A DNA stretch of 62,568 nt, the filler included, from Asterionella formosa (taxonomy: Eukaryota): NCBI GenBank assembly GCA_002256025.1. It is 14 parts of 14 records of this genome, joined end to end, with 100 filler letters (N's around TTAATTAATTAA, not from the genome) between each part and the next. Parts side by side here need not be neighbours in the genome. Positions count along the whole stretch, not along the records: positions 26,895 to 31,271 come from NKIB01013561.1; 13 more parts are not named here. The stretch is one strand, 5' to 3'. Below the pieces are notes generated by a model. That model was given only the letters and a program-made list of their open reading frames with translations. It was not told the origin of the DNA and searched no databases. The position numbers and the translations under genes were made by a program. This document shows, one piece after another, positions 1,899 to 58,791 of this stretch (position 1 is the first letter of the stretch; each line of letters begins with the position of its first letter).

Positions 1899-2454
1899 TA
1901 TTTATTTAATATAGTAGAATGAAAGAATATTACATCCAATGTCTTGTTGTTCTCCATCTTGTAATTCAATGGTGAAGTTTCTGGAGTCTAGTTTGGGTTA
2001 GCAATTATTTCTGCATCATCAATCTATATACAAGCCTGCGCCACTTGACATCAATATAGCTACCTCGACTTCATCAATGAAGAAAGTATGATGGGCGGAG
2101 CATGTGAGAAAAAACAGGGGTTGAGGTGAGCTGTTGTCTTGATGTCGACGTGCTTGGCTGAATTTGCAGGTCAAGGCATTGAGTAGCCTATTGACGTATA
2201 CAAAGAGAATGAAGCGATGATGAAAGAAGGAAAGAATCAAAATAAAATAAAGAAAGTGTTATCAACGTTTCAATATCTAGTTCCGAGGAAAATTGGGAAG
2301 AAGAATTCCAGGGTGGCTTGTCAGAATATCAACCGGTCTGACCTCTGTACATGTATATTTATTTAATATAGTAGAATGAAAGAATATTACATCCAATGTC
2401 TTGTTGTTCTCCATCTTGTAATTCAATGGTGAAGTTTCTGGAGTCTAGTTTGGG
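1899..2454 (+). repeat. Exact 99-bp direct repeat (1899-1997 and 2356-2454)
   Basis: TATTTATTTAATATAGTAGAATG...GAGTCTAGTTTGGG is identical in both copies. Confidence 0.9.
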
Positions 2455-3373
2455 ATTAGCATGCTTTCTGCCAATATTGAGACGCTCCGAATTTCTTTTG
2501 CATCCTAGGACTTTGGCAATCTTGTTGCAGTCCCCTTTAGCTAAGTAAACCTCTGCATTGGCAAACTTGTTGGGTCAGGTGTAAGCAATTTCTGCCATTG
2601 TATTGCTTGGCCTTGTCCATGACTGAATCAACATCATCATCAGTGTTTGAGGGTTATAACAACTCCTTGTATGGTGCATAGTGGATAAGGGTTTCATCAA
2701 ATTGAGACTAGTTCTTTATGTCTCATCAAGCCATTCTTCTCATGTTGCTTACTAGCAGCAGACAAACTGTGGATTGCTTGGGCAATGATTTTGCTTGCCA
2801 TTTTGTTTTAAAACATAGTAGTAGCACCTACCCTGTCCAATGTTTTCGGCCACTCCTAGCCATCATCCAATCTCATTTTCAGTTCCCCCTCCCCTGACAT
2901 CATGATATTTTACTCAGCCATAGAAATCGAATGGTATATGCCCCGGAGATGTCTGGGGTGGTGATACCGGTGAGTAGTTCAAGTGGCTGGGGTACTACTA
3001 CAACCATTAGTTAAGGGGTGTGCCATACGTTCTCGGATCTGAGAAGTGTATTCAAGACAGTAGTCCCAGAAGCATTCAGGAAATTTAGCTCAATGCATGA
3101 TGCAACTGAAATGTCGTTTTAACTTTGGTCTCACATGTTTGGCATGGTTTTGCTAAAGAGAATACTAGGGCTTGGTCAGATGTTGGAAAAGATATTTCTT
3201 CCTAATTTGTTTTCCCAGTCAGAACCAGTTTCTTCTCCTGCATTGTCAGTGACTAGGTACTTAGAGATACCAACAGTGGTACCACCATAAATCTATTAAA
3301 AAAAACGTTAGGCCTAACAGTTTTGCTGTAAGACCCACTGCCCCAAAAATTCTCAGTATGACGTATTATTTTT

Positions 3374-3526
3374 TGATTGATCATACAAAAAAACTGATTG
3401 ATCATACAGAATTACTGATTATCATACAGAATTACTGATTGATCATACAGAATTACTGATTGATCATACAGAATTACTGATTGATCACACAGAAATACTG
3501 ATTGATCATACAAAAAACTGATTGAT
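3374..3526. repeat. 21-bp minisatellite (ACTGATTGATCATACAGAATT), about 7 copies
   Basis: Head-to-tail units with no spacers. Confidence 0.95.
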
Positions 3527-4387
3527 ATCAACTAACGTTTTGGTGTTCGATCTAAAGATAGTAATCGTGAGATCAAATCAGTTATTGATTCAATCTAACC
3601 TTTGGAATGCTAATATCAAATAGAATTTTTAGCTTTCGATCTAATATTCATTACTACTGATCTAACTTATTACTCTCATTGATCAAACCTATTATCATGT
3701 TCTATAAATGATAAACAAAAATCGAATTAAATGGATTGATATTTAATACTCAAATATTCTAGTCTACTTCTGGTCACCCATACTTTCCACTGTGCATGCA
3801 TCCTCTATCAGAATGAGCAAACAGTGGTCTTCAATACCTCAATTTTCACTTCCGGTAGCTATGTTTAGATAATTGCCTTATCAAAATGAAATTAGAGAAT
3901 TAACAAAATTGATGATGCTTTATTCGAACCTCTACCATTGCAAATGGCAGCAAGTCACATTCTCCAATGTTCTTTTACGACTTTCCTGTAAGAGATAATA
4001 ACAACAATGTTAGCAAAACTGTTGCATCAAGTAAGCTACTAGGCAGCCATCTAAACAAAGATATGTGCAACGAAATGATCATATGAACAACCTATCACTC
4101 CAATTTCCGTATGAGCAGGCAATGTGCACCAGATGACTTACCTGTGCTCTCATGGTTTATTGTTGCTTCCATTAAGAATTGTAGCAAGCCACATTCTCCA
4201 AGGTTCCTGTATGATTTTGAGGAGATAATATCAATGTTAGCAAAAGTGTTGCAATGATTAAAGCATCTCCAGCCACACATGTGCCACGAACTGATGACAT
4301 CATAAACAATCTTTATAGTAACTTCACATTCCAATCGACATAACAAGCATCAAATGAGAGTACAATAACTTACCTAGGATGCTCTCA

Positions 4388-4487
4388 NNNNNNNNNNNNN
4401 NNNNNNNNNNNNNNNNNNNNNNNNNNNNNNNTTAATTAATTAANNNNNNNNNNNNNNNNNNNNNNNNNNNNNNNNNNNNNNNNNNNN
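4388..4487. other. Artificial contig-joining linker (N-TTAATTAATTAA-N). Repeated at 8874, 13360, 17841, 22320, 26795, 31272, 35744, 40217, 44691, 49162, 53632 and 58101
   Basis: Identical 100-nt N spacers carrying a six-frame stop linker, about every 4.47 kb. The intervening contigs are nearly equal in length and roughly decreasing, as expected for size-sorted concatenated contigs. Confidence 0.97.
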
Positions 4488-6266
4488 CTGGTATGAATCA
4501 CCACGGCCATGCGTCATGCAATGTTATAACTGGTACCAGGGGGGTGCCAGTACCAGGTATTGCATGACCACTCACATGCCAGTACGGGTAGTCCGATTTT
4601 GTTGGCTGCCGTGCGCCGAGCGGTCAATATTTCTTACGCATTCCGGAGTGGTAGCTGGTACCTGGTAGTTAGTAAGGTACATATGAGCATAAAAGCAAAA
4701 GTATATGGAAGGTGCGGTAATTGCGCCCACTGCGCGCTTTTTTGGTTTAAGCCCACCTCCAGAGCTTCAAAGCCACAACAAACTGATGGAGTCGGCTGAC
4801 TTTCTAGCCAATGGTTTTTTCTTTAGTAAAAACAAATTATAACCTTACTTACGAAAAGGTAATAACTTCTAAGCCGAGCCAACTTACAGTGAGCAAAATT
4901 TTTTAGCAATGAACAAATGCATGGAGCAATGAGCAAAATTTTCGTGTAGTGAGCAAAAAAATTCGGGACAGAGCAAAAGCAAAAATTCATGGGCAAAAAA
5001 TAGAACCTCGTCATTTTTGGCTGAAACAATTTCATCTTCATTTGTCGGAATTAGAGCAACAATTGAATTCTGGTAGAAAATTCTATGCAATACTGGTCAT
5101 TGAACAATTCTAATTATACCACTGTTATATCCTTGAATGAGGGGCCACGAAGTAGACCCCGTAGGCCTAGCATTATCAAAAACTTGACCCTATGTATGTA
5201 TTCATCAGTAATATTTTGCGCCTAAAAACTCTTGTTAAAATCACATTGAAAATGTCGGTATTATTCTGTTGGTTAACTCATCAATTTTGCAACCTCTCGC
5301 GCCGCTTGATTTATCAACAACATAACCGCCATGATCAGTGCTTTCAGTAAACGCATGAATCAAGCGGCGCGGGAGCACACTATTTCGTTTAAATACGACC
5401 TATTTAGTGTTGAGCATGGCAAATCCACGCCTACATGACCAAAAAAATCACGTACAAACCTCTTGAGCTTGACAGTATGGTACCTGGAGGTGAAACTGTA
5501 CAGGAATTCCTCAAATAGGGTGGTGCTAGCTACTATAGCAGTAACAATATAGCTACTTCGACGATTTCACAACCATCGCTGTGCAATGGACTTGATTTCA
5601 AGGTCATCAATGAATGAACTCAACCTTGTCAATATCAGTGTAATTAGCATAATTCTTTTACGATTGTATAGTCGATGATGTCGTGATTGCACGTACCAAA
5701 TAACAAAGCATCGTTCTGATTTTTCATTAAGTTATTTGTTATCTTTGTCGTGGTCAAGACTGAGACAACAGTTTGCAATATTCGCTCTCCAGACGTTCAG
5801 AATGACTACACTGTAATGTTTTAAATAGAGAAAAAGCATAAATCTAAGCTAAGTTATTTCATTCTAGTGCCTATGTGGGCTGCCTCGGATACTACCCTGG
5901 TGTGCATGAATCCATCAAAAGGCAAGGTGTATGATTTATTGCATGTTTCATGGGAAATACATTGGTTACTTCACCTTATGTTTACTGGTATGTTGTATCA
6001 TTCACTAAAGTGTTATGTAGGTATGTGGCTGTGATGGCTTTGGGTTGAAATGATCATGGCATCACACATTAAGGGAAATTGATAATTTAAGCAAATGTAC
6101 TTCAAGCAAAGCGGTCAAACATTAAGTAAATCCTAGCTATGGTACGACCAACTTGCAGAATAACAAGTTACAGTTAATTCCAAACAACCAGGCGGTGGGG
6201 TGGTTTATTAAATGAAAAATCAGAAGGGATACACAAGAATCATTTTATTTCAATTTATTTAGATTA

Positions 6267-6850: not shown

Positions 6851-9326
6851 CATTTTGACAATAAAACGAGTAATGGCTTAACATCTATGTAAATGACAAT
6901 TTAAAGAGTATTGGAGTGGCGCAAAATTTAGGGGTTGAACAGAAAACGAGCAACCTGCACGCTATGTGCGCTGATTACCGGACCTTCCTGAAGGCAATAC
7001 ACGCCCGAGGTGGTCTCTTGCCTGCGAGGATACATGTGTTCGAGGCTGGGTGGCACAAGTAGGTCGACCGTACAAGTGGTGCCCCCGGAGCTGCGAGAAG
7101 GTCACCCTACAAATGATGCCATCCCAATCGAGTACACATTTATGTGAGAAGGCAAGTAGCCGCTGAGAAGGGTACTATTGAGGAAATTCCCGCTCTAGCT
7201 ATCGTTGTGTCATTCGCTTACCTACTGCCCACAAATAAAGCATAAATGTCAATTTTAGCTTACTATTGCCTATCATATAAAGTAAATTTTGTTTATTTCC
7301 TATCTTTACATCGAAAATTGCCAAAGGTCCGATATTGCCCATTATTAAAATATATTTTGTATATTTCATATGTTAGCATTTTGGCAAGACAACAGATGCC
7401 AATTGCCCCTCGGTTTTCCAGCCCTGGGATTGCTGAAATTGGCAAAGGTTCCACTTAAGGAAACCATTTTAAATACTCTACAGATTTAAATAATTTATAT
7501 CTAGAATTCACCTCGTTTTCTTCATCAACTGAAAAGTGGACTCCGGCAATTCACCTTTCACCGTGCTGATCGTCGTCCATCATGACCGGGTTGAAGCGAA
7601 ATCAGTTCAGCCAGTGATGACACCAGTAGCGATTCGTTGTCTGACAGATGCGGTTGGTTGTTGGATTGCTTTTATTCTCGAGGGCTTCATGTAGTTGCAT
7701 CGTCCATATTTCGTTGGACAAACAATGATAGCGATGCATCTGGTGAGGTTGGTGGCACGTTTTTGCTCCGGTCATGCATGTGATGATGCTGCCTTACCTG
7801 GGCTGTGACGGTAGTCATCTATCCTACATACGTACGTGGTACTGAAAACAACCAATCATGCATGGTACTTTGAACACATTATAATTTTATCTCTTTAGAC
7901 TCGGTATTATGTTTACGAGACCAGAATGTTAAATTATATTGTTCACATATTGATTGATTTTACGTACTGAATGGCCGATTTCGTCCTCACAATTATAATT
8001 CTCAGTCTATCCTGCCTGCCGTTGCTCAATTTGGGCTTGCAACAGAAACTTTCGACTTTTTTTATGCGCTCATCGTCTGCTGCGTGTTACCCTTGTTAGA
8101 GCAGATCGGTGAGTACAACAGTCAAATACTGAATGTGATCATATTTAGCTACGATTGTCGATTTTCCGATTTGATTGCTTCTGTGGTTTGTATTGATCGC
8201 TTCCATTGTTGTTTGTCGTTACGCACTGTTGTTTTGTTTTGATTGTATATATCTACATAAGAACCAATGTATTTATCAATGACTACTCTTTGAAGATGTG
8301 GGATTGTGCCGTTGTTGATCATATTTGTTGATTTTTACTATAGTTGTTGACTATGATGTCAATGTTGCCGCCAAGCAATGCTTTTCTTGTACCAACGCGT
8401 TTTGCTACCTTTCTACTATGAGTATGTATCACAAGCTACGTTAAAATACTTCGCTAGAGGGAATTGATAGTGCAGGAGCAGCCTGGCGATCATGCTCACT
8501 CAGAATGGAATGATGAGGGCTGTTGTTTGGTGGGAGGAATGACTGTGGTGGAAAGACCGCTATTACTAATGTCAGGCTGCTACAGCAATGTGAATGGTTG
8601 CAGCAAACAGATCATATATGCTACATAGAGATGCAGGTATAGTTGGTTTCCGCTTTTCTCTTCTCATTTCGGTCTTTGATTCTTGTGTGGTAATAGAAAG
8701 TCAATCTTGCCTGTGTAAGAACTATAATGTCACAATGCATATGTCTCCATTGAAACTCCTATTTTTTACTTCATTTCTAACCCAAAACAATTTTTTCTAT
8801 TTCTTATTTGATGCTACTTATTACTTTGCATTTCATACTTTGGTTGCTCCAAACATCATGTTCAATTTTCATTNNNNNNNNNNNNNNNNNNNNNNNNNNN
8901 NNNNNNNNNNNNNNNNNTTAATTAATTAANNNNNNNNNNNNNNNNNNNNNNNNNNNNNNNNNNNNNNNNNNNNTTTATAGTACATTGTGTATTTTCACCA
9001 GGAACATGGGTTTTCCAACATGATTTGATTACAGATATGTAATTGATATTGGGATATCAATGTCGATAAGTGATAATTGACAAATGACTACGTCGTGATA
9101 CTTTCCGTCGTCGTTCTTGCGATTACAAGGTTGTTGATGAGGTTTTAATCCTATCGGATAATCCTACTACCTTGGATAACCATGGACGAGGTCCTTATTC
9201 TATTTATTCAAGTATATGCCAATGGTCCAGTTACTTTTCAACAAACTATGCATACTACGGACTGAATTAATATCCATTACATCAAACCTTTTCAAAGGTA
9301 AAAGGTTTTCCCTTGGTGTGGGAGAG

Positions 9327-26684: not shown

Positions 26685-27321
26685 AGTGGCTGGAGGCGAT
26701 GTGGACAATTGAATCTATATGAGTCGGGAGGATGCCTTGTTGTTCACCCCTTTGTCCAATGATGCCGGTGTGCTGCATTTACCTGTTGCTTGGTNNNNNN
26801 NNNNNNNNNNNNNNNNNNNNNNNNNNNNNNNNNNNNNNTTAATTAATTAANNNNNNNNNNNNNNNNNNNNNNNNNNNNNNNNNNNNNNNNNNNNCAATTC
26901 CATCGTATCCTCTTGCTTCACTTACCACAAATCAATGCAACTGATGCATAAGTCTGTAATAGTAACTTGTCAGTAAATTCTTGAATAAGTAAGTTTCGGG
27001 TATCCAATGTTGTTGAATAAAACTTACCGGTACATTTTTGTCATCTTAACTTTGAGAGAAGGTAAACGTTTTGTCAGTTTTGTTCCAACAGAAGTGAATA
27101 GGTCCAACAAGCGACAAGAGCACTTACGCAATTTGGTTTTGTTTTACATTGGTGCTCCCCAACAAGCGAAACGAGCTGTTAAATCAACTGAGAAAAAAGG
27201 AAATGTGGCTGCGTTTAGTTAACAATTTGTTGTTGTCCTGCCTGCCTCCCAACGATTGTCATCCAAGTACCACATTGATGGCTTCATTACCTTAAACATT
27301 CTCCATCCTTCGAAGGCCAAA

Positions 27322-27606
27322 TGTTGAATATGTGTAACGGACATGTCGGTAACGGTTACACCAATTACAACGATATTGACAATGACCGCACCAACCATGC
27401 CAGCATGCAAGCTAACGAACAAGAGTGGATCACAGCTGAACCAAGGAATATCAGGATTAGAGATAGTGTGTCTGGTACCAGCGAAACTGGCTCACTTTAA
27501 TTTAATTATTTGGTTTTATAAACGATACCATCCCGGTGTGCTTTTTATCGTCGGATTCGTTGTTTTATGGACACGAAGACATATTGAAAACATTGTGGTT
27601 TCAACA
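27322..27606 (+). mobile_element. 5' LTR (285 bp) of CoDi-like Copia element A
   Basis: Terminal inverted repeat TGTTGAA...TTCAACA, ending 23 nt before the gag ATG at 27630. Confidence 0.8.
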
Positions 27607-27629
27607 TAATTAAATTAAAGTTAAATAAG

Positions 27630-30600
27630 ATGGACAAGGTGAAAACAGAAGGTGGGGACGCCGACACGAAGGTTGACAAGGATTTCGGCATTGATGCCAA
27701 GAAAAGAGGTCGCTTCAACTTCGGAAAGCAACAGGCATCCCGGACACCAGCCGCAACGAAATTCGAAGGCAAATGCAACGAATTAAGAGGAAATGTGTAT
27801 GACTGCTCGGATATGAAGCAAGTAGACCTATTCGCAAAGACGACGAAGGAGATTGCAGGTTTCGTAGGGCGCACCTACAAATACGGTGGTGACATACGAT
27901 TGGTGGTTGAGAACCTTGAGATGGTCAGCATCACTACACCTAAGGATCCACCAAAGGATTCTACACGCACAGAGGAACGAATTTGGGAGAAAGAAGTGGA
28001 TGAGTTTGTAAAGAGATCAACATACCTCAAAGAAAACATCAAGACACTATACTCCCTTGTATGGGGACAATGCACGGATATAATGCAGCAGAAGGTTGAG
28101 GCCACGGACATATTTGACACAATGTCAATGGAAGGCAATGGTTTGATTCTCCTTAAAATCATCAAGGACGTCAACTATAACTTCCAAAGCCAGAAATACC
28201 TGCCTCACTCCCTATACGAATCCAAACGCAGGTTCTATATGTGTGTCCAGGGACGAAACATGACGACACAGGTCTACCTAGAACACTTCCAGAACATGCT
28301 AGATGTTATTGATCACAGCGGAGGGACCATTGCTGGCGACTCAGGAATCGAGAACATGATTCTGAATGAAAAGACAACTAGCAAGGAGAACATGAATGAT
28401 CAACAGTTAAGTGAACTCAAGGCAGAGGTACTCAAGCGATTCACAGCAGTAGCATTCCTAGTAGGAGCTGATCGTGTACGCTACGGCCGTCTGGTTGATA
28501 ATATGGAGAACGACTTCCTACAAGGACGAAACAACTATCCCGAGACCGTCAGTGCAGCCTACCATCTACTAACAAACTGGAAGCAGGATCCACGGCATGG
28601 GCTACACGAAGTAGGGGCAGTTGGTGATGGCGTATCCTTTCACAATGTGAATGACAAAGATGGAACGACACTGAACAACAACAGCGAGAATGGCGCGCGG
28701 AAAAGGCCAAAAGGAAAGGCACACATCATGTGCCACCGATGCCAAAAGAAGGGGCACTACGCTACGGAATGTGAGGAGCCTGCACCTGTCCCTAGGAATT
28801 TGACCACCAGTACTCCTCCCACAGCTGAAACGACATCAACCCAGTCCGCCACCACACTACTAATGGATGGTGTGCATGAGGGAGAATTCGAGGAAAATGT
28901 ACACTTCCAATTTCTAAATCAAGGAGGAGTGAGTCTGAAAATTGGGCCCGATGGAAGGCTACCACGTACATGGATACTATTAGACAATCAGTCAACAGTT
29001 GATGTGTTCCATAACGCGGAACTCCTACGCAACATCCGTGTCCACACCAGTAAGATGGATATCCACTGCAACGCTGGTATAATCAGCACCCAACTCGTCT
29101 CATAGGAGACCTTCATGGATATGGAACAGTATGGTACAACCCAAAGGGAATCGCGAACATCCTGTCCCTCGCATGTGTCAAGGAGCATGGATACAGGGTA
29201 ACATTTGATAGCAGCCAGGGCAATGCATTCCATGTTCACAAACCTGACGGAACCTATAGAGTGTTCAAAGAATCAATGAAAGGCCTATACTACATGGATA
29301 CAAAGGATCGCTCTGGAGTCACCCTTATCAATACGGTAGACGATAACCGTACTAGCTACTCCCAACGTGACTACTCACAAGCTGTGCTAGCCCGAAAGAT
29401 ACAGAAGATTATTGGGCGTCCTAGTACCCGCACATTCATCAAGATTGTCGAGAACAACCTGTTCCCAAACTGCCCAATCACACGCGATGACATTATAGCG
29501 GCAGAACAAATCTTCGGGCCCGATGTGGGCTCGCTAAAAGGAAAAACAGTGCACCGTAGTTCAGTGCCAGTGAGGACCAACTCTACCACCATCCCCGCCG
29601 GGATTATCGACAAGTACCGTGTCGTGACACTTGCAGGTGACATCATGTTTGTCAACATTATGCCCTTCCTTGTCACCATATCAAGACACATCAAATTTAG
29701 CATGGGCTCCTCGAAAACCGATGGCTACCAACAATAATCAAGGCCATTGACAATGTGCGCAAACTCTACATAAAAAGAGGTTTCCAAATCGAAACAATCA
29801 TCATGGATGGACAATTTGACGGACTGCGGGCCAACTTAGCCGAAATGGGAATGACACTCAACAGTTCTGCAAATGACGAGCATGTCCCTGAGGTTGAATG
29901 CCACATTCGCACACTTAAAGAACGAGTGCGATCTGTCTACAACATGTTACCATTTGCCAAAATGCCAGCTCGTATGATTATCGAGCTTGTCTATTATTGT
30001 GGGTTCTGGCTAAACAGTTTCCCAGCCCACGGTGGAATATCTCCTACTCTCAGTCCACGCACTATAATTGCAGGCATGACCATTGACTACAACCATCACT
30101 GTAAACTTGAGTTTGGAACATACGCACAAGTCCACGAGGAACACGATAACAGCATGACTGCACGCACGGTTGGGGCCATTGCCCTACGCCCAACAGGAAA
30201 CCACCAGGGCGGACACTTCTTTTTCAGCCTAAGCACAGGTCGCGTCCTAAACCGCAGCCATTGGACTGTGCTGCCAATGCCCACTGATGTTATCGATCGC
30301 GTTCACAAAATGTCATGTCGGGATGAAACTGAAGTCACCCTATACTTTGCCACAAAACGCGGTCAGATTGAAGATGAGATGCATGACGATGTTGACGATG
30401 ACCCCTTTGATCCAGCCAACAATGACAATACTGACGAAGATGATGACGACAACGCTGATGCCGCAGCACCCGTCCACATCGTAGGAGTGAATGACAATAG
30501 CGATGTAGAAGGTGTAGAAGATGGAGACGAATACGATCTCGAAGCCACGGAACCAGGCAACGAACTAAACGAAAACACTGCCGAACTCAACGATGAAGAA

Positions 30601-31142
30601 GAAGTCGACAAGGAACCCAACCCGCCTGATAATGATGAACCAAGAGCTGACAACAGCGATGTAGATGGTGAAGACAAACACGATCCCGAAGCCACGGAAC
30701 CAGGCAACGGAATAAACGAAGACACTGCCAAACCCAACAATGAAGAAGAGGTCGATGAGGAACCCAGTATCGAACAACGGATTCAACAAATGGACGCCGC
30801 ATATGGCCAGAGACAACACCAATACGATCTGCGGGCTCGCAAGCCTTGCGACTATAGTCACCTACATGTCATACTAGAAGTCACCGTCATGACCCAACAC
30901 AACATAAAGAAAGGGCTAAAAGTATTCGGCGAAGCCGGTGTGGAGGCTGTGCTTAAGGAATTGAACCAATTACATGAACGTGGAGTACTCAAACCAACAA
31001 AAAACTTATCACATGAGCAGCGCACGGATGCACTACAATACCTCATGTTTTTGAAACAAAAACGCAATGGAACAATTAAGGGCCGTGGCTGTGCTGATGG
31101 TCGGAAGCAACGTCAGTACACAACTAAGGAAGAAGCTACATC
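27630..31142 (+). mobile_element. CoDi-like Ty1/Copia polyprotein (gag, protease, integrase, start of RT), degenerate
   Basis: CCHC knuckle CHRCQKKGHYATEC, protease WILLDNQSTVDVF, integrase DIMFV/MDGQF/EHVPEVE, RT start KGRGCADGRKQR. Frameshifts near 29090 and 29705. RT is cut off at about 31142. Confidence 0.93.
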
Positions 31143-31260
31143 TAAGACGCGAAATACGCCACTTTTCGAAATTTCGTCTACGTATGAGTGTTAATTATGT
31201 GGTACTTCACATGCATTAATGCCACTCTTCACGTAAAAAAGATTACTTTTAACTGTTTCA
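31143..31260 (+). repeat. 118-bp dispersed repeat that truncates the Copia RT. Inverted copy at 46549-46666
   Basis: Reverse-complement match with 3 mismatches in 118 nt. Confidence 0.9.
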
Positions 31261-31371
31261 TGTGAAGTTTTNNNNNNNNNNNNNNNNNNNNNNNNNNNNN
31301 NNNNNNNNNNNNNNNTTAATTAATTAANNNNNNNNNNNNNNNNNNNNNNNNNNNNNNNNNNNNNNNNNNNN

Positions 31372-33001: not shown

Positions 33002-33820
33002 ACTTCTGCCCTTCTTTCAACCATAAACATATACCTAGGACATTTAATTAAGGTGTAATTAAACAGCTGTATATATTCTTCGTATCGTAGATAGATATAT
33101 GTGTTGTACAATGTATTGTGGGATGTGGAACACCTGGAAAAAGTTGCAGATCATTTCATTCTGCCTTCCCTATCGTAATTCGCATTGCTAATAGCTGTAC
33201 CGTAATAGGGTTGGCTGACCATTGTGGTTGTGTCATGCATTTCGCATGCATGATTCTTACTGGTATCATAATCTTCGGAACCTGGTAGCAGGTACCAGTA
33301 CCTNNNNNNNNNNNNNNNNNNNNNNNNNNNNNNNNNNNNNNNNNNNNNNNNNNNNNNNNNNNNNNNNNNNNNNNNNNNNNNNNNNNNNNNNNNNNNNNNN
33401 NNNNNNNNNNNNNNNNNNNNNNNNNNNNNNNNNNNNNNNNNNNNNNNNNNNNNNNNNNNNNNNNNNNNNNNNNNNNNNNNNNNNNNNNNNNNNNNNNNNN
33501 NNNNNNNNNNNNNNNNNNNNNNNNNNNNNNNNNNNNNNNNNNNNNNNNNNNNNNNNNNNNNNNNNNNNNNNNNNNNNNNNNNNNNNNNNNNNNNNNNNNN
33601 NNNNNNNNNNNNNNNNNNNNNNNNNNNNNNNNNNNNNNNNNNNNNNNNNNNNNNNNNNNNNNNNNNNNNNNNNNNNNNNNNNNNNNNNNNNNNNNNNNNN
33701 NNNNNNNNNNNNNNNNNNNNNNNNNNNNNNNNNNNNNNNNNNNNNNNNNNNNNNNNNNNNNNNNNNNNNNNNNNNNNNNNNNNNNNNNNNNNNNNNNNNN
33801 NNNNNNNNNNNNNNNNNNNT

Positions 33821-35400: not shown

Positions 35401-38027
35401 GTTGTGGCGCTTGTGATACCATTTGATGTTCTGTTGGTGACATTTCCATGGTGGCACTTGTTGGTTGTTGGATGAAGTGAGTGCTGAGGTGCTTGTATAA
35501 ATCTGTTGATTGTCGTTTACAATAGCTGCATTCAAATACAGACAACTATACATGTGCTCTGGTGAGGAGTAAAATTATATCTACATAAAGCAATGTAGAT
35601 ATAAACGTCTTCATTCTTTTTGAACTGGAACTCTATCAATGTGGTGCCAATTTCTACTACATAGTTTAAAAATTACGAACTATATTTGTATCATGGGAAT
35701 ACACAGAAACAACTTCCCTGTTCCACAGCAATTTTACAACCCTNNNNNNNNNNNNNNNNNNNNNNNNNNNNNNNNNNNNNNNNNNNNTTAATTAATTAAN
35801 NNNNNNNNNNNNNNNNNNNNNNNNNNNNNNNNNNNNNNNNNNNAAGCAACTCACTTACCGGTACTTCATGCATACGGTAGGCAGGTGAATCCTTTTGGTG
35901 ATTTCATGAAAAAATCTCGTAGGTGGTACTGTTTCAGGTACCTGGTACAAGTAGTCGCGCCGAGAGGTCGCAGCTGATGTTCTCCATTTAGGTAGAGGAG
36001 TAAAATACTGGTAAGCACAATGACGTCGTTGCATATATTGTTATTGACAAAAACGAATCTGTTCGGACACTCAGTGAATCTATTGACGGAAATACTTTCT
36101 TATACCTGCTGTACATATATATATATATGAACACACACATATATATATAAGTTGTTTCCAGCTGAATGGAGTAAAAATTAGCTTTTTCATTTCATTTCTC
36201 GTCGTCAGCAAACCTTTGGGACTAAATACGGAAGAGGGTGCGCTCTCTGATATCAAAAAATTATTATTATATCACGTGTGTATGATTAAAACACAAATTA
36301 TTTTGGCGATTTTGTTATGTAATAATGTCATCACGCTCTCATAATAAAGAAATTTTAGATTAGTGATCTGACATTTTTATATAAATTATGCCATCATGAG
36401 TGAACTTAAAACAGGAGACAGAGAAATAGAAATTTCAGCAAGAAGCAAGCCTCTCATCCACAAATCAGGTCAACAGAACTTTCACAACAAGGTGTTGCCT
36501 TCCACTAGTGACTTTTCACTCCAAAATGAAGACATTCAGAGGAACTTGCATCGTTTGTTTGCCCATGCTATGGACTGAGCCCAACCTATTCTTGCTTTTC
36601 AACAACAAGTCTTATCAATCCCCATAGGGATGCAGGTGAAATCAATCATGTTTTCGATGAAATTAAAAGTCAATTCCATCAAAGGCAAGAGTGATTGGCA
36701 GCAAGCCCAACTTATTACTGACTTTCAACAACAAGATTGTTTCAATTACCATCATGGGGACGGAGGTGAAATCAATCCAGTTTTTGATGACATTTGAAAA
36801 TCAATTTCAACAGCTGCAAGAGAAATTAGCAGCAAATCCAAATGTTTTGCAGCCTTGTAGATGGAGATGATGAGGTACCAGGAGTGGAGAGGTTCAGTGG
36901 ACTGTGTTTTGTCTGGAAAATAAGTTCCACGCAGCAGACGCCATTGTACAAAGGATGGTACAGTAACAAAGGTCTGTGCATAGTGAACCTGATATCTTCA
37001 TTTACAAGCACAGCAAATGAATTTTAGTTGATGGCAGTGTTGACGATGTAGTGACATTAAAGCTAGCAAATAAATGTATAGAATGATATAATGCGCTCAG
37101 TTTCTTCATTTCGCCTTATAGTCATCAATTAGTACAGACATTGCACTTGATTTGATAGTGGCTGCAACCACTAAGATTGTATTGCAGGTGGATTGTGAGC
37201 AAGAAGACATGATCACAACAAAACTGGAAGCAGACGATTGATAATACCTTTAGGATGATCAATGTGTATATGTATATGCATACTGACATCTTTTTTGGTA
37301 AGAGCAAGCCATTTCAGGTATTAGCAAGCAAGTCTTGAAATATTACAAGAAATTATATGTAGTCATTTATGCCTATATATCTACTTATATAATACACTGT
37401 TATTTTTAACTGTACAAAAAATTGTCGAGGTGCAAACCGGAGTTACCAAATTTAGTCAACACAACCAGGNNNNNNNNNNNNNNNNNNNNNNNNNNNNNNN
37501 NNNNNNNNNNNNNNNNNNNNNNNNNNNNNNNNNNNNNNNNNNNNNNNNNNNNNNNNNNNNNNNNNNNNNNNNNNNNNNNNNNNNNNNNNNNNNNNNNNNN
37601 NNNNNNNNNNNNNNNNNNNNNNNNNNNNNNNNNNNNNNNNNNNNNNNNNNNNNNNNNNNNNNNNNNNNNNNNNNNNNNNNNNNNNNNNNNNNNNNNNNNN
37701 NNNNNNNNNNNNNNNNNNNNNNNNNNNNNNNNNNNNNNNNNNNNNNNNNNNNNNNNNNNNNNNNNNNNNNNNNNNNNNNNNNNNNNNNNNNNNNNNNNNN
37801 NNNNNNNNNNNNNNNNNNNNNNNNNNNNNNNNNNNNNNNNNNNNNNNNNNNNNNNNNNNNNNNNNNNNNNNNNNNNNNNNNNNNNNNNACACACACACAC
37901 ACAAACACACAATAATAGATCACCATAGTTTCTATGAATAGTTCCTATTGTGGGTTTCATTGTTTTCCAATACTTGATATTAAAAAAATAATAAATCCCT
38001 CCTTGTTGACAGTCACTACTAGAAGTA

Positions 38028-49261: not shown

Positions 49262-52200
49262 ACGACGTCCGGGTCCACATGCGAAATCTTGTTGTCGTCT
49301 ACATACCACGCAATCGTACACTGCTTCCCGTTGATTGTGCAGTTAGCAATGCAAGAGTCGTAAGGGTTTAACACAAAACCCATCTCTTTTAGGGTGTTGT
49401 GGAATAAATCATACCATAGTAGGGCAGATTTGACGCACCCATAAATCGCTTTCACTAGCCTGACGTACAACACTTTGTTTCCTTTCTCGTTGGACACAAA
49501 ATTCGTGTGCTCTGGATTCATGTTGCATACTATATCGACTGATTCACCAGTGAATTTCATAACAACGAAATCATCCATGTCTGCTTTTAAATACGCACCC
49601 GCCACATCTGCTGTGGCGACATCTCTTCCTTCATGTGCATCGATCATGATGGACAACATGAGTGCATCGGTGGATACTGTTGGAGATGCCGTCTGCGACT
49701 TGTCATAAAGTGATCGCTGCGGTCTCCCGTCGGCTACTGTACGCCCCTTGAGGCGCCCGTCTCTCTTCTATTTGATGAAATTGATGGCTCGGAGCGCTCC
49801 CGTCCTCTGTTCCCTGGTAAGGGAGTTCGCGCTTACGGGTTCGTACACATCCAGCTCCTCTAGTTGTGCAAATTCTCTCATCAGGGCGGCCTCCGCCGCT
49901 TTCCCGTGTTTCTTTATTCCCGCCTTCGCGGTCATCTGGTTCATTACATACCCAAAAATATGTTTACTTGTGTTGTCGTCTGCGTATGACATCTTTGTTC
50001 GAAATCCGCGTTGTACGAACTGTCTTGGTGGAAAGTATGACTTGTTGCTATGCGGTGCATCAATGGCCTGCTTGAACTGTTCACTTGTGGCTGCCCGGCG
50101 TTGTCGGGGATTATATGGTCTGTGTTCTTCCGCCAACGCTCCTTGATCTGCCACCTCAATGATCGCTGTCTCTTCCATAGGCGCTCCTTGGTTTTCGTCG
50201 ATAGGCGCCCCTTGTTCCAAGTGCGCTCCTTGGTCTTCGTTGTGTTCTTGTTGTATGTAGTCATTGTAGACAAGCGCGACATCATCAATGTCGATCGTGT
50301 TTGGGTCTCCTGGGTTTGGCTCGACTGGATTTGGCTCGACTAGCAGTGCATCGTCCAAAACCGTAGGGTGTGGCCCATCATGGAGCAGATCGGCAACTTC
50401 GTGATCATCGATGGCATCAAAATCCGCGGAGTTAAAATCGTCAATAGGTTGATGTGCGGCAGGCTCGTAGTCCCGGTCGTATTCGTTGTTGTCAATGTGG
50501 TGATCGGTGCGCCATTCTACAGCTAGGCCTCTGGCCTGGATGGGGGGCTGCCCCTCATGTGCCGCGAGCGCCTCCACGCGGGCAATGGCGGTGTCCGTCA
50601 TGGGCAACTCCGTCCAATTATGTCGGGAAATTTTATTGCCGGTTGCAAGAGACATGAAGTAGTAGTCACCTTGGACATTACCAGTGGGGGTAAGGGCAAT
50701 TGCCCCGAGGGAACGCGCTTGAAGGGTGTTGGATGGGTCGTTGTCTTCAAAAACTTGGACGTAGGTCCCAAACTCAATGCGCATTTGGTTGTATTCTGGG
50801 TTGGCAGCGCCCGTGACAATGCATGCAGGGCTCATGGTGTCTGAGATGCCGTTTGCCCATGGGAACTGGTTTAGACATCGAACGGCATCGATCACCATAT
50901 GGTTGATGATCACCCGTGGAAGACGCTTGAAAGGTAGGCCGTGTGCGCACGAGCGTAGTCGCTCCTTGATGGTTCGGATGGACCGTTCCACTTCACCAAC
51001 GTGACTGTCGGCAGGTACAATGTTTAATGCGATAGGTTGCAATTCCTCACGAACACACTCGAGTTCACTGTCAGCATGCACATCACAAACCTGTAAACCG
51101 CGTAGGTGGTAGAGGCGGACCGCACTCCGAATTTTGCGTAGAATGGTAGTCTTGGTCCGGTCGGGAACCAGGTCCACGGTTCGGAAACCGATGCCGCGTG
51201 AGATGGTATGAAAAAATGGTAGACCCTGCACAAAGAAGAAATCGGCGCACAACGTTACGTTGTGGTGATGCTCCAGGATTGGGGCAGGAATCGGTTCGGC
51301 CACAAACGTTGGCGCTCTTGGGGCGGCGCGCGACCGCGTAGTTTTACCTTTTATGTCAGCGATGTCTGGACCGTAAATAATGAGGGCGCGCTTGGCGTCG
51401 TCTGGCGTCACTGGGCAATTTCTAATCAAGTTGTTCCATAGGATGGATTGGAATTCCACCTCGGCAGGCCGCCCGATCTTTCTATACAAGTCTCTGGCTG
51501 TATTGGCTGATTGAATTTCACGTCGTGAGAATAGTTTCTTCTGTTCTGCTACTGTGGATAGCATGGTGTAACCTGTAACATTGTCGTTAGTATCGTTGTT
51601 ACAACTAAACACATATAGTCCTGAGGGGTGCTCAAGAAATTTCATCACAGTTCCATCGAGTCTATGGACAAGCATCGCGGGCTCGTCCGCAGAGTCCATG
51701 GTGACACGGCATACCTTGCGCACCTCAGCAAGGGAGAGGATGTTGGCAATTGATTCACGGTTGTACCAAACCTTACCCAAGTTGGGAAAATCTCCTACCA
51801 TGTTGGATTTCTGGTAGCCCCCATTTGTGAGCGCCCTGAGTAGTGTCGACTGCGAGTCAAGAAGGATCCACTTAGGATCAATCCCAGGGTCGCCGGTCTG
51901 TGTAAGCATGTATGCATACTGCGTCAATGTAGTGCCTGAGGTCGTCGATCCCTGCCTGTCAGGGCAGTCTCCCGTGTAGTGTCCTAGGCTTTGGCAGTTG
52001 TAACAGATGATGCCATCATGTAACACTCCATTATTGCCTGCGATTTCGCCACGTTGCGCAAACGTCATTGCGCTGGCCTCAGGGCTTCCAGTCGGCTGGG
52101 AGCGTGGTGTATCTTTCCTGACATTGGTGTTCGTTGGAGTTCTGTAGTTTACGAGAAGGCTTTGGGCTGACAACAAATCGGTGGGGTACTGGTCAATTCC

Positions 52201-53094
52201 CATTGCATACTGGTTTGACAGGTCAGCGATGAGGGTGCCATACCTGGTGGGGTCAGCACTTTGAATCAAAGCGATTGCAAGGGTGCGTTCACGCGCGATC
52301 TCCTTTCGCTCTTCAATGCTACGCCAATTCCTGTCCTGATCCTGGAAGGATACCAGTTTATAATTTGCTGCCACGGTGCCGCCATGGTACTCGATGGTCT
52401 CAGCCCATCCTCGCAAACACTCAACGTAGTCTTCTGCGGACTGTCCTTGTAACTGACGACAAGTGAGGAAACTGGTCTGGGCGTCCAAAAGTGCAATGAA
52501 ACCATTCCTGCTCTGATCGAACTGTAAAGTAATCGACTTGATCTGTTTTAGAAGCCAAAAATAATCGTTGTTGGCAGTCTTGTCCTTGTAGTCATCGTGC
52601 GTTTTGACCTTTGCCTTCATGTCATCATTACACTGGCCCCAAATCACCGCATACACTGTTGCTAGGTTGCTCTTCAGGTAATGATTGCGCTTGACATACG
52701 TTTTTACTTCTTCTGCGAAAATCATTTTCATGGTCAGTCCTGCATCATCATCTAGTTCATCTGGCATGTCTACCATGGGAACCGCCATGGTGTCGGCAAA
52801 CAAAGGGGCAAGGTCTTCAGAGTACTTCAGTGTTTTCCTCACATATCCATCTACAACTTCTAACGTTTTGGCGTACTGGCGTCTGTCACTTTGTTCTTCA
52901 TAGCATTCAAATACGTTTCCGTTCATGCCCTCTGTGCTGCCCTTAAAAATGCCACGGTTGTTGCTTGTCGCTTGTGTCCTTCCCTGGCCGCCACGGCTCC
53001 CGCGCGGACGGTTGTCCCTTCGCCCTCTCCCACCGGTGCTGCCGCGTCCACTCGCTAAGCTGCCGCTGGTCGATGCGTCTGGGGTGGCACTCAT
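49262..53094 (-). mobile_element. CoDi-like Ty1/Copia polyprotein B (gag, protease, integrase, RT), cut by the gap
   Basis: CYNCQSLGHYTGDC, WILLDSQST, ADFFFV/HADSE/HVGEVERSIRTIKER, RT ADVAGAYL...KAIYGCVKSALLWY...YVDD. In-frame TAG at 49768-49770 and an apparent deletion in the protease. Confidence 0.95.
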
Positions 53095-53291
53095 GGGGTT
53101 CGTTGGTCAAATCTCTTCAAATTGTCGCTGTTGGTTCCTTGATTGGTGGCTGCGGCCTTCAGCTGCGCTACTCGAATCTGTAAAATGTTCAAAACCGCGA
53201 TTGAGATGTCGAAACTCCAGCCTTCCATGTGAGTCTCAAAAAGAACGGCTGTTCCTTTTGTTTTACTTTATTTTATTTTATCTCGAAACAA

Positions 53292-53631
53292 TGTTGTTCC
53301 AACTACCGTAATCGACCGTATCGTAGGCCTTGAACCTAGTACTGTGTTAATCGAATACAGTTGATGAAATTGATAGCAACGAAGGAGTTGTCAAACTTAA
53401 ACTTTCACTTTACTAACTGGATTGTTTCGAGATAATGGTCTCGAAACACTCTTATTTCTCACATTGCATTTTAACATTTTTTCCTGACCTCTGATTGCTT
53501 TTCCTTGCGTTGTGCCTTTTACCACGTCAGCCCAGGTAAATCTTGGTAGCGGCTGTACGGTTTTAACTGTAGTACTGTTCTCTCTCGTATCTACTATACC
53601 CTTCACTCCTGTCCTGTGGCAGTCAGCTCGC
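53292..53631 (-). mobile_element. 5' LTR of Copia element B (its 5' end lies in the gap)
   Basis: Ends in ...GGAACAACA on the minus strand, about 200 nt upstream of the gag ATG. The boundary is inferred from the CAACA terminus. Confidence 0.7.
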
Positions 53632-58100: not shown

Positions 58101-58791
58101 NNNNNNNNNNNNNNNNNNNNNNNNNNNNNNNNNNNNNNNNNNNNTTAATTAATTAANNNNNNNNNNNNNNNNNNNNNNNNNNNNNNNNNNNNNNNNNNNN
58201 TAAGTTACAAACAGCAGTGTTGGAGCCCATTTATTGATCGATACTTTGCTTCTCATTCAATCTTCGACTGACACATTCTTCTACAGAAATATGCATCAGT
58301 TACTTCCTCAATTTGTGGTAAGTGAAGATAGAAGCGAAATGAATGTTGTTGTGTAAGCAAAACATGAACAGCTAACAATGAATTGCTTCTCTTTGTTAGT
58401 ATGATTGGGACAACGAAACGGTTTAAATAGTAATAGGAAAATGCGTGAATGCAAACTCAGAACAACCCTCAGGAGTAAATGGAACAAAGCAAGCAGGGGA
58501 ACAACGGCAAGGCAACCAGTACAACAACCTTCAGAATTGGATTGAGGGAGGGGGAGGTGGAAGTGAAAGCGGCACCAACAATCATTGCGATGAGAGCATT
58601 GTAGAAAATTCTGTAGCCACTTAAGATATGATAGAATCATAGAACCATTCTTAGCTAAATATAGTTCTAAATGTCGATCAATTTCATCCTATTTTAGACA
58701 GTGATATCGATGAGAATTACGATCATGCTAAGATAGATGTATGACAAAAGTATACACATCATATGACCATGTTTAACTAATTATATGATGC

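Follow-up and report, generated by a model that had tools for sequence, protein, structure and literature searches.

Priming by a host tRNA is taken as a hallmark of LTR retroelements, and it provides a handle for host defence by tRNA-derived small RNAs. Tf1 of Schizosaccharomyces pombe, whose Tf1/sushi group belongs to Ty3/gypsy, has a priming duplex of 11 bp and a U5-IR stem-loop. Reverse transcription of Tf1 is reportedly self-primed, in work said to be that of Lin and Levin in 1997, Butler et al. in 2001 and Atwood-Moore et al. in 2006. For plants, the part of Neumann et al. 2019 (PMC6317226) drawn on here predicts self-priming for 12% of elements, the Ty1/copia lineage TAR included (Capy 2005 being cited for Houba and Osr-1), and takes as a self-primer site a stretch of at least 10 nt, 0–5 nt after the 5' LTR, that is complementary to the 5' LTR; in view of that prediction, the earlier note on this DNA gave an incomplete account when it named tRNAs or tRNA halves as the primers of characterised Ty1/Copia elements. 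The fungal Copia element GalEa carries a "Conserved Hairpin Site" in place of a primer-binding site (PBS), according to the available text of Donnart et al. 2017 (PMC5445492). The Copia elements of diatoms are known as CoDi (Maumus et al. 2009, PMC2806351, and Llorens et al. 2009, PMC2774666, both in part); the accessible text of these two papers makes no mention of PBS, tRNA or priming, and neither do a preprint on diatom transposable elements (10.1101/2025.10.24.684338) and Filloramo 2021 (PMC8147415). We found no report of self-priming in diatoms; subscription journals, Repbase/GyDB or the supplements of Maumus 2009 may hold one.

Elements A and B, described here, very likely belong to a diatom Ty1/copia clade that primes minus-strand DNA with its own RNA and not with a host tRNA. 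The best reading is that of a known mechanism with a new holder, a diatom clade that appears to carry the full sequence signature of Tf1-type self-priming. As in Tf1, there is no tRNA site, and the stretch after the 5' LTR is complementary to the putative start of R; as in the Tf1/sushi group, the complementarity varies by family and covaries. Unlike Tf1, the diatom elements are Ty1/copia, with integrase before an RVT_2-type reverse transcriptase (RT), their duplex measures 14–18 bp against the 11 of Tf1, a search for a helix like U5-IR found none in them, and many families show an extra U3 hairpin over the start region; the likeness is one of sequence, cleavage and start being putative in the diatom elements. 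With TAR they share the Copia architecture and a predicted self-primer, which has the length, position and complementarity laid down in the portion of Neumann et al. cited above (PMC6317226); they differ from TAR in having diatoms and not land plants as hosts, and in what supports the prediction, namely covariation across 25 families and an initiator motif where the arm begins. Judged from host range, membership in the TAR lineage is unlikely; because self-priming of TAR has already been proposed, the diatom clade would not be the first such Copia lineage. Like GalEa, the diatom elements have no tRNA-type PBS; unlike GalEa, which in the available text has a local palindrome for which no complementary LTR sequence was found (PMC5445492), they have the partner within the LTR, 71–177 nt upstream. 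Like CoDi, as far as the cited parts of those papers describe them, they are diatom Ty1/copia elements with short TG...CA LTRs, some with an ORF upstream of the polyprotein ORF.

The two elements and their class

The window, by which we mean the whole stretch of 62,568 bases that was analysed, consists of 14 pieces of about 4.37 kb each, linked by N44-TTAATTAATTAA-N44 (N runs at 4388–4487, 8874–8973 and so on to 58101–58200), and two longer N runs lie inside pieces (33304–33819 and 37470–37888); because the pieces were joined, features on separate pieces are not genomic neighbours. Element A lies in piece 26895–31271 on the + strand and element B in piece 49262–53631 on the − strand (Table 1); no 3' LTR of either was found in the window pieces. 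The limits of the A LTR rest partly on its termini, TGTTGAA...TTCAACA, which match the TGTTG...CAACA ends of relatives, and also on homology to relatives with true LTR pairs and 5-bp target duplications; at the left limit, contigs assembled from RNA runs show a loose end at 27324, with the flank going on without the element.

Table 1. Features of elements A and B in window coordinates, and state of the LTR junction in 79 related metagenome loci
Feature	Position or loci	Strand	Remarks
5' LTR of A (putative)	27322..27606	+	285 nt, TGTTGAA...TTCAACA
Initiator-like motif TCACT (TCAH(+1)W) of A	27492..27496	+	putative start 27494/27495
Putative self-primer of A (5' end of R), ACTTTAATTTAATTAT	27494..27509	+	perfect 16-nt complement of 27606–27621
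Rest of R-U5 in A	27510..27605	+	96-nt loop between arms
Putative own-RNA primer-binding site of A, ATAATTAAATTAAAGT	27606..27621	+	first base is the last base of the LTR
gag ORF of A	27630..29105	+	zinc knuckle; runs into protease motif ILLDNQST
Integrase, acidic repeat linker and RT start of A	29054..31138	+	two further frames; copy ends at 31138
5' LTR of B	53292..53631	-	first ~13 bases lost at piece border
Putative self-primer of B, TTATCTCGAAACAAT	53421..53435	-	CCA just before; putative start 53436/53435
Putative primer-binding site of B, ATTGTTTCGAGATAA	53278..53292	-	starts at last A of LTR (..AACA)
U3 segment of B complementary to primer arm	53439..53451	-	second, upstream hairpin; pairs with 53420–53432
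gag-protease-integrase ORF of B	49768..53094	-	1108 aa; RT goes on at 49262–49767
Perfect pair at LTR junction	34/79 loci		13–18 nt
Imperfect or indirect pair	4 loci		L065, 14/15; L040, 13/15, rearranged copy; L030, 13/14; L037, 14 nt against arm in its 3' LTR
Site and LTR end both there, contig begins within LTR	3 loci		L004, L020, L076
170–875 nt 5' of gag, no recognisable junction	4 loci		L014, L050, L064, L075
Region absent	34 loci

A is read in three frames, and because the RNA-run contigs of its family differ from it at two points (5 nt fewer at 29094 and 4 nt more at 29701), the window copy carries frameshifts relative to the copies in the RNA runs. The same contigs diverge from the window sequence at 31138; this abrupt end may represent a truncated insertion, or it could come from chimeric assembly. 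Between integrase and RT lies an acidic repetitive linker (30440–30790) with direct repeats at 30513–30619 and 30660–30766 that are 86% alike, and length variants of the linker, with 59–181 nt skipped, occur in the RNA-run contigs. The flanks of A (26895–27321 and 31139–31271) had in run X1 a contig depth 20–60x that of the element (2,000–4,700 vs ~70), and the left flank shows one joint, from 27187 to 27291, with CT..AC ends, as for an intron of the minus strand; these depths, the diverging contigs and the intron-like joint place A in or beside a highly expressed spliced gene. A search for Rfam families in the whole window, the flanks of A included, returned none.

The proteins of B are 27–41% identical to those of A (gag, 27%). 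In locus L001, 92% identical to B, the LTR is 353 nt long and its position 210 is where the primer arm lies; the primer arm of B lies 196 nt from the piece border. A start of the B LTR at TGTTAAAATG (53476), giving a 41-nt U3, was considered and rejected on the length of the L001 LTR, that of B being cut by the border.

Alignment A1 has 19 sequences, of which 18 matched RVT_2 (PF07727), the exception being B itself, which is cut before most of RT, and 17 matched zf-CCHC. The tail of B holds the YVDD region and A holds the RT start alone; in P0001 the zinc knuckle occupies residues 307–322 and RVT_2 residues 1072–1306. An AlphaFold model of the stretch of about 430 aa between protease and RT (pLDDT 85.5, 25-sequence alignment) matched the integrases of retroviral intasomes (RSV 5ejk, E 1.7e-08, probability 1.00), by which residues 520–870 of B (region 50485–51807) are confirmed, at the level of the model, as an integrase fold. 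The order is gag-PR-IN-RT, and the elements are therefore Ty1/copia; the TG...CA LTR ends and short target duplication of Ty1/copia were seen in L029, L054, L060 and L079. The integrase, clear by fold, was missed both by Pfam rve (0 of the 19 polyproteins) and by a PDB sequence search with the integrase region of B (no relevant match); since it is clear only by fold, domain-based classifiers of transposable elements may mislabel these elements.

Between the primer-binding site and gag, 16 of the 18 relatives examined have a separate ORF of 98–126 aa (L008 1004–1381, L009 337–654, L012 1599–1913, L029 9373–9738, L079 3130–3501 and 11 more loci), which is absent in A and B. Its product begins with a coiled coil and has a small barrel motif (IGDRVRI...KNL) at the C terminus; its Pfam matches were weak and SH3/KOW/Sm-like, that of L012 alone being above cutoff (MS_channel_2nd, 29 bits). 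An upstream "ORF1" is described for some CoDi elements in the accessible part of Maumus 2009 (PMC2806351).

The complementary pair at the LTR border

Within gCTCActt (T 27492, C 27493, A 27494) it is the A that opens the first arm of element A, and the second arm starts at the final A of ..TTCAACA (27606), the same position as that of the site in relatives with defined LTR ends. The earlier note had claimed for A a perfect 16-nt reverse complement, an LTR arm beginning at the A of an initiator-like CTCACTT and no TGG-starting PBS behind the LTR, and for B the same geometry with a different sequence, and all of this is borne out: the two arms of A are the sole two sites in the window at up to 2 mismatches (expected 0.15; at least two such sites in 1 of 100 shuffles), no TGG occurs in the first 9 nt after the A LTR, and the arms of B, 15 nt long, pair perfectly. 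All 16 pairs of A are present in the minimum free energy (MFE) fold, with P ~1.00 for the middle pair; the fold as such is not more stable than those of shuffles (z = -1.31).

When the A LTR (27322–27605) was shuffled 20,000 times and the match was anchored at -2..+5 of the LTR end, complements did not exceed 13 nt, a length attained once, and none came to 16 nt. The arms are 88% A+T and the window is a composite of short pieces, two points in favour of a chance match in AT-rich sequence or an assembly artefact; since 16 nt is out of the reach of the shuffles, AT-richness is no explanation of the match, and the geometry of A recurs in B and in 34 metagenome contigs independent of one another, while the arms of A are unchanged in the RNA-run contigs of other studies, among the contigs listed. 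Chance or artefact we count as refuted.

Relatives were sought with the integrase region of B, which gave 351 at E <= 1e-10 among 8,000 scored candidates; those with a name are from the diatom Fragilaria crotonensis, whose proteins share 76–78% identity with B, and carry RVT_2 and zf-CCHC. A scan of IMG/VR viral contigs with the polyprotein alignment gave 96 pattern matches and no relatives. JGI metagenome contigs, scanned with alignment A3 (one row of A included), yielded 79 loci at 31–92% identity to B. The best protein identity of A to these loci was 30–43%, with no close relative recovered, so that the backing of the A pair itself consists of lineage-level analogy and of the unchanged arms in RNA contigs. 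Several of the 79 loci show true LTR pairs on self-comparison, and in many of the contigs the two ends overlap by 127 nt, which we take as assembly circles with collapsed LTRs. The LTR pairs of L029, L054, L060 and L079 are 99.65–100% identical, have the termini TGTTG...CAACA and are flanked by 5-bp target duplications (TGGAG, GGCGC, CGTTT and ATAAT, respectively); these are thus insertions of recent date, from which the LTR is known to end at ..CAACA. In all four, the complement starts at +1 of the LTR end.

The 79 loci and the A and B pieces (81 sequences, 444,307 nt) together contain 41 inverted repeats that pair perfectly over 13 nt or more around a loop of 40–300 nt. Of these, 36 had the geometry of A, in which one arm lies at a CA inside the LTR and the other begins at -1/+1 of the LTR end, and 5 lay elsewhere. 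The loops between the arms measure 71–177 nt in the relatives, and the distinct pair sequences, those of A and B included, number 25. One of the five non-canonical repeats, L029 493–505 / 597–609 (TTCTTTGGAGATA / TATCTCCAAAGAA), is pair-like but for the CA contexts and may be the remnant of an older element.

A tRNA-type site was looked for in the same families. In none of the 25 do the 9 nt that follow the LTR contain a TGG, and their 25 sites all differ from one another. The longest complement of any site to the tRNA-Met gene of L051, the sole tRNA gene found (17 large loci), was 7 nt, and the window holds no tRNA genes; for any single family a match to an unusual host RNA could still exist, the tRNA comparison being with one tRNA-Met gene.

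Covariation was examined in alignment A4, which holds one sequence per family. Standard pairs occupied 95.2% of the cells, compared with 65.0 +/- 1.6 in shuffles, and none of 500 shuffles reached the observed value; double changes were seen in 13 of the 15 pairs, and double-changed cells numbered 106 against 27.8 +/- 4.4 in the control, counts which overstate the independent events because the 25 families share descent. When the partner was slid by 1–3 columns, 39–50% of cells were paired. Misalignment of a row or a gap (L066, L007), together with six families whose arm is shorter by one base, accounts for most of the unpaired cells, and G:U occurs in 1 of 374 cells. RNAalifold with no structure given predicted the primer/site helix alone, both for the 25 sequences and for a 12-sequence subgroup, and the single-sequence MFE folds contained the full helix in every family. 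No conserved extra helix in R-U5, a Tf1-like U5-IR included, was predicted by RNAalifold from either set, in which the loops are too diverged to align well. Natural covariation is taken here as a surrogate for compensatory mutation, and as such it suggests that the duplex is required.

In retroviral replication the start of minus-strand synthesis sets the right border of the LTR, and therefore whatever anneals just 3' of the LTR is the primer. Wherever the LTRs are defined in these elements, the 3' arm lies at -1/+1 of that border, where a primer must anneal, and no other conserved or tRNA-like sequence was seen at the LTR border. Covariation by itself shows pairing and not priming, so that the helix, present in all 25 folds, could instead be a structural part of the genomic RNA which closes R-U5 for packaging, dimerisation or translational control, some other primer having gone unrecognised; such a role is improbable in view of the position of the arm and of the kind of pairing, since a helix kept by selection only should give G:U intermediates and mismatches, and the near absence of G:U fits an arm copied from an arm. 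In retroviral replication the primer also templates the plus-strand copy of the primer-binding site, so that a self-primer would re-template its site each cycle, which fits the near-perfect Watson-Crick pairing better than does a selection-only helix. A precedent for the structural reading is fungal GalEa, a Copia element without a PBS and with a conserved hairpin whose role is given as unknown in the available text (PMC5445492). The earlier suggestion that the lineage self-primes gains support from the pairs in 34 of the 79 loci and in A and B, 25 sequences with almost no mismatch or G:U, and the family-wide check of complementarity and covariation was passed.

The putative transcription start and the proposed priming reaction

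The CA before the LTR arm is invariant (25/25 families); T stands at -2 in 21 of the 25, and the CA is followed by Y and then by W (T or A) in all 25. This motif at the arm border fits the metazoan-type initiator YYANWYY. It also fits TCAH(+1)W, the Inr-like consensus that Kadono et al. 2015 put forward for diatoms (PMC4686930, in the part available). Complementarity starts at H(+1), just after the CA, in 22 of the 25 families; the arm takes in the A in 2 families, that of A being one, and reaches the C in 1, extensions which, from their number, are probably about what chance would give.

Family A was present in four metatranscriptome runs from several studies (shares 0.67, 0.44, 0.22 and 0.11), which consist of assembled contigs, without RNA ends. 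The contigs span U3 as well, as expected from transcripts of the 3' LTR. Among the metagenome loci, contig L034 has its first bases at the TCA and runs on to a point some 100 nt inside the 3' U3, a weak hint of an RNA start at the TCA; the contig ends of the loci showed no informative poly(A) tails.

A second covarying inverted repeat was seen in 14 of 24 families, where a segment of U3, located 4–40 nt 5' of the invariant CA, pairs perfectly over 9–16 nt with the putative start and the 5' part of the primer (L008 809–858, L079 2942–2996, L028, L060, L062, L054 and others). B has it too (13 nt at 92%; 9 nt when a perfect match is demanded); it is missing in A, L009 and L066. This repeat could be a promoter palindrome, or it could form a hairpin that masks the copy of the primer in the 3' U3-R end of the RNA.

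The position of the start bears on which RNA would act as the primer. In 22 of the 25 families the complementarity has a sharp limit at the base that follows the invariant CA, and this CA lies within the initiator-like motif, as expected if the arm were the 5' end of the transcript. The primer might be another LTR-derived RNA and not the capped 5' end, with the start site upstream; the arm would then be cut free at both of its ends, or else be provided in trans by the U3-R copy at the 3' end or by a second packaged RNA. The start position is itself deduced, and the pairing of a U3 segment across the putative start, seen in 14 of 24 families, could be a sign of transcription and folding of this region; with the upstream hairpin missing in A and the two other families named above, and with one contig starting at TCA, we hold an upstream start to be quite improbable.

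The preferred reading, priming by the capped 5' end of the element's own RNA, would then proceed as follows. Transcription would start at the initiator-like TCA(Y)T within the LTR, and the first 14–18 nt of the transcript would fold back over an R-U5 loop of 71–177 nt to anneal to the site, whose first base is either the last of the 5' LTR or the next one; we infer that this pairing is within one RNA, rather than between two. A cut at the 3' end of the duplex, by the RNase H of the element if matters are as in Tf1, would free a 3'-OH, which reverse transcriptase would extend into U5 and R. Plus-strand strong-stop synthesis would later copy the primer into DNA, so that the site would be re-templated from the primer in every cycle, which would explain why the arms are almost always in perfect Watson-Crick match.

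Meaning for diatom Copia elements

The range of self-priming would be widened past the Tf1/sushi group of Ty3/gypsy and one plant Copia lineage, in which it is predicted only, to a clade whose hosts are a major group of marine and freshwater algae. The finding bears on the question whether self-priming is ancestral or was invented repeatedly. That it is ancestral and universal in a deep diatom (stramenopile) Copia clade, either as a survival or as a third independent invention, with the U3 hairpin as a new regulatory part, is conceivable though doubtful; the clade would in that case span elements about 30% identical in protein. If it were so, the survival would be that of hairpin self-priming, on which Benachenhou et al. 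2013 (PMC3601003, in the part available) speculate for the earliest LTR retrotransposons, and the U3 hairpin, where present, would mask the primer sequence repeated at the 3' end and thereby reserve the primer-binding site for the true 5' end.

For annotation, the elements offer a signature, TCA-primer ... CAACA-site; PBS-based LTR finders that seek tRNA matches would miss or misjudge such elements. Diatom Copia elements are described as stress-induced and as shaping diatom genomes in the accessible text of Maumus 2009 (PMC2806351), and their mode of replication is for this reason relevant to the evolution of diatom genomes and to retrotransposition assays in model diatoms.
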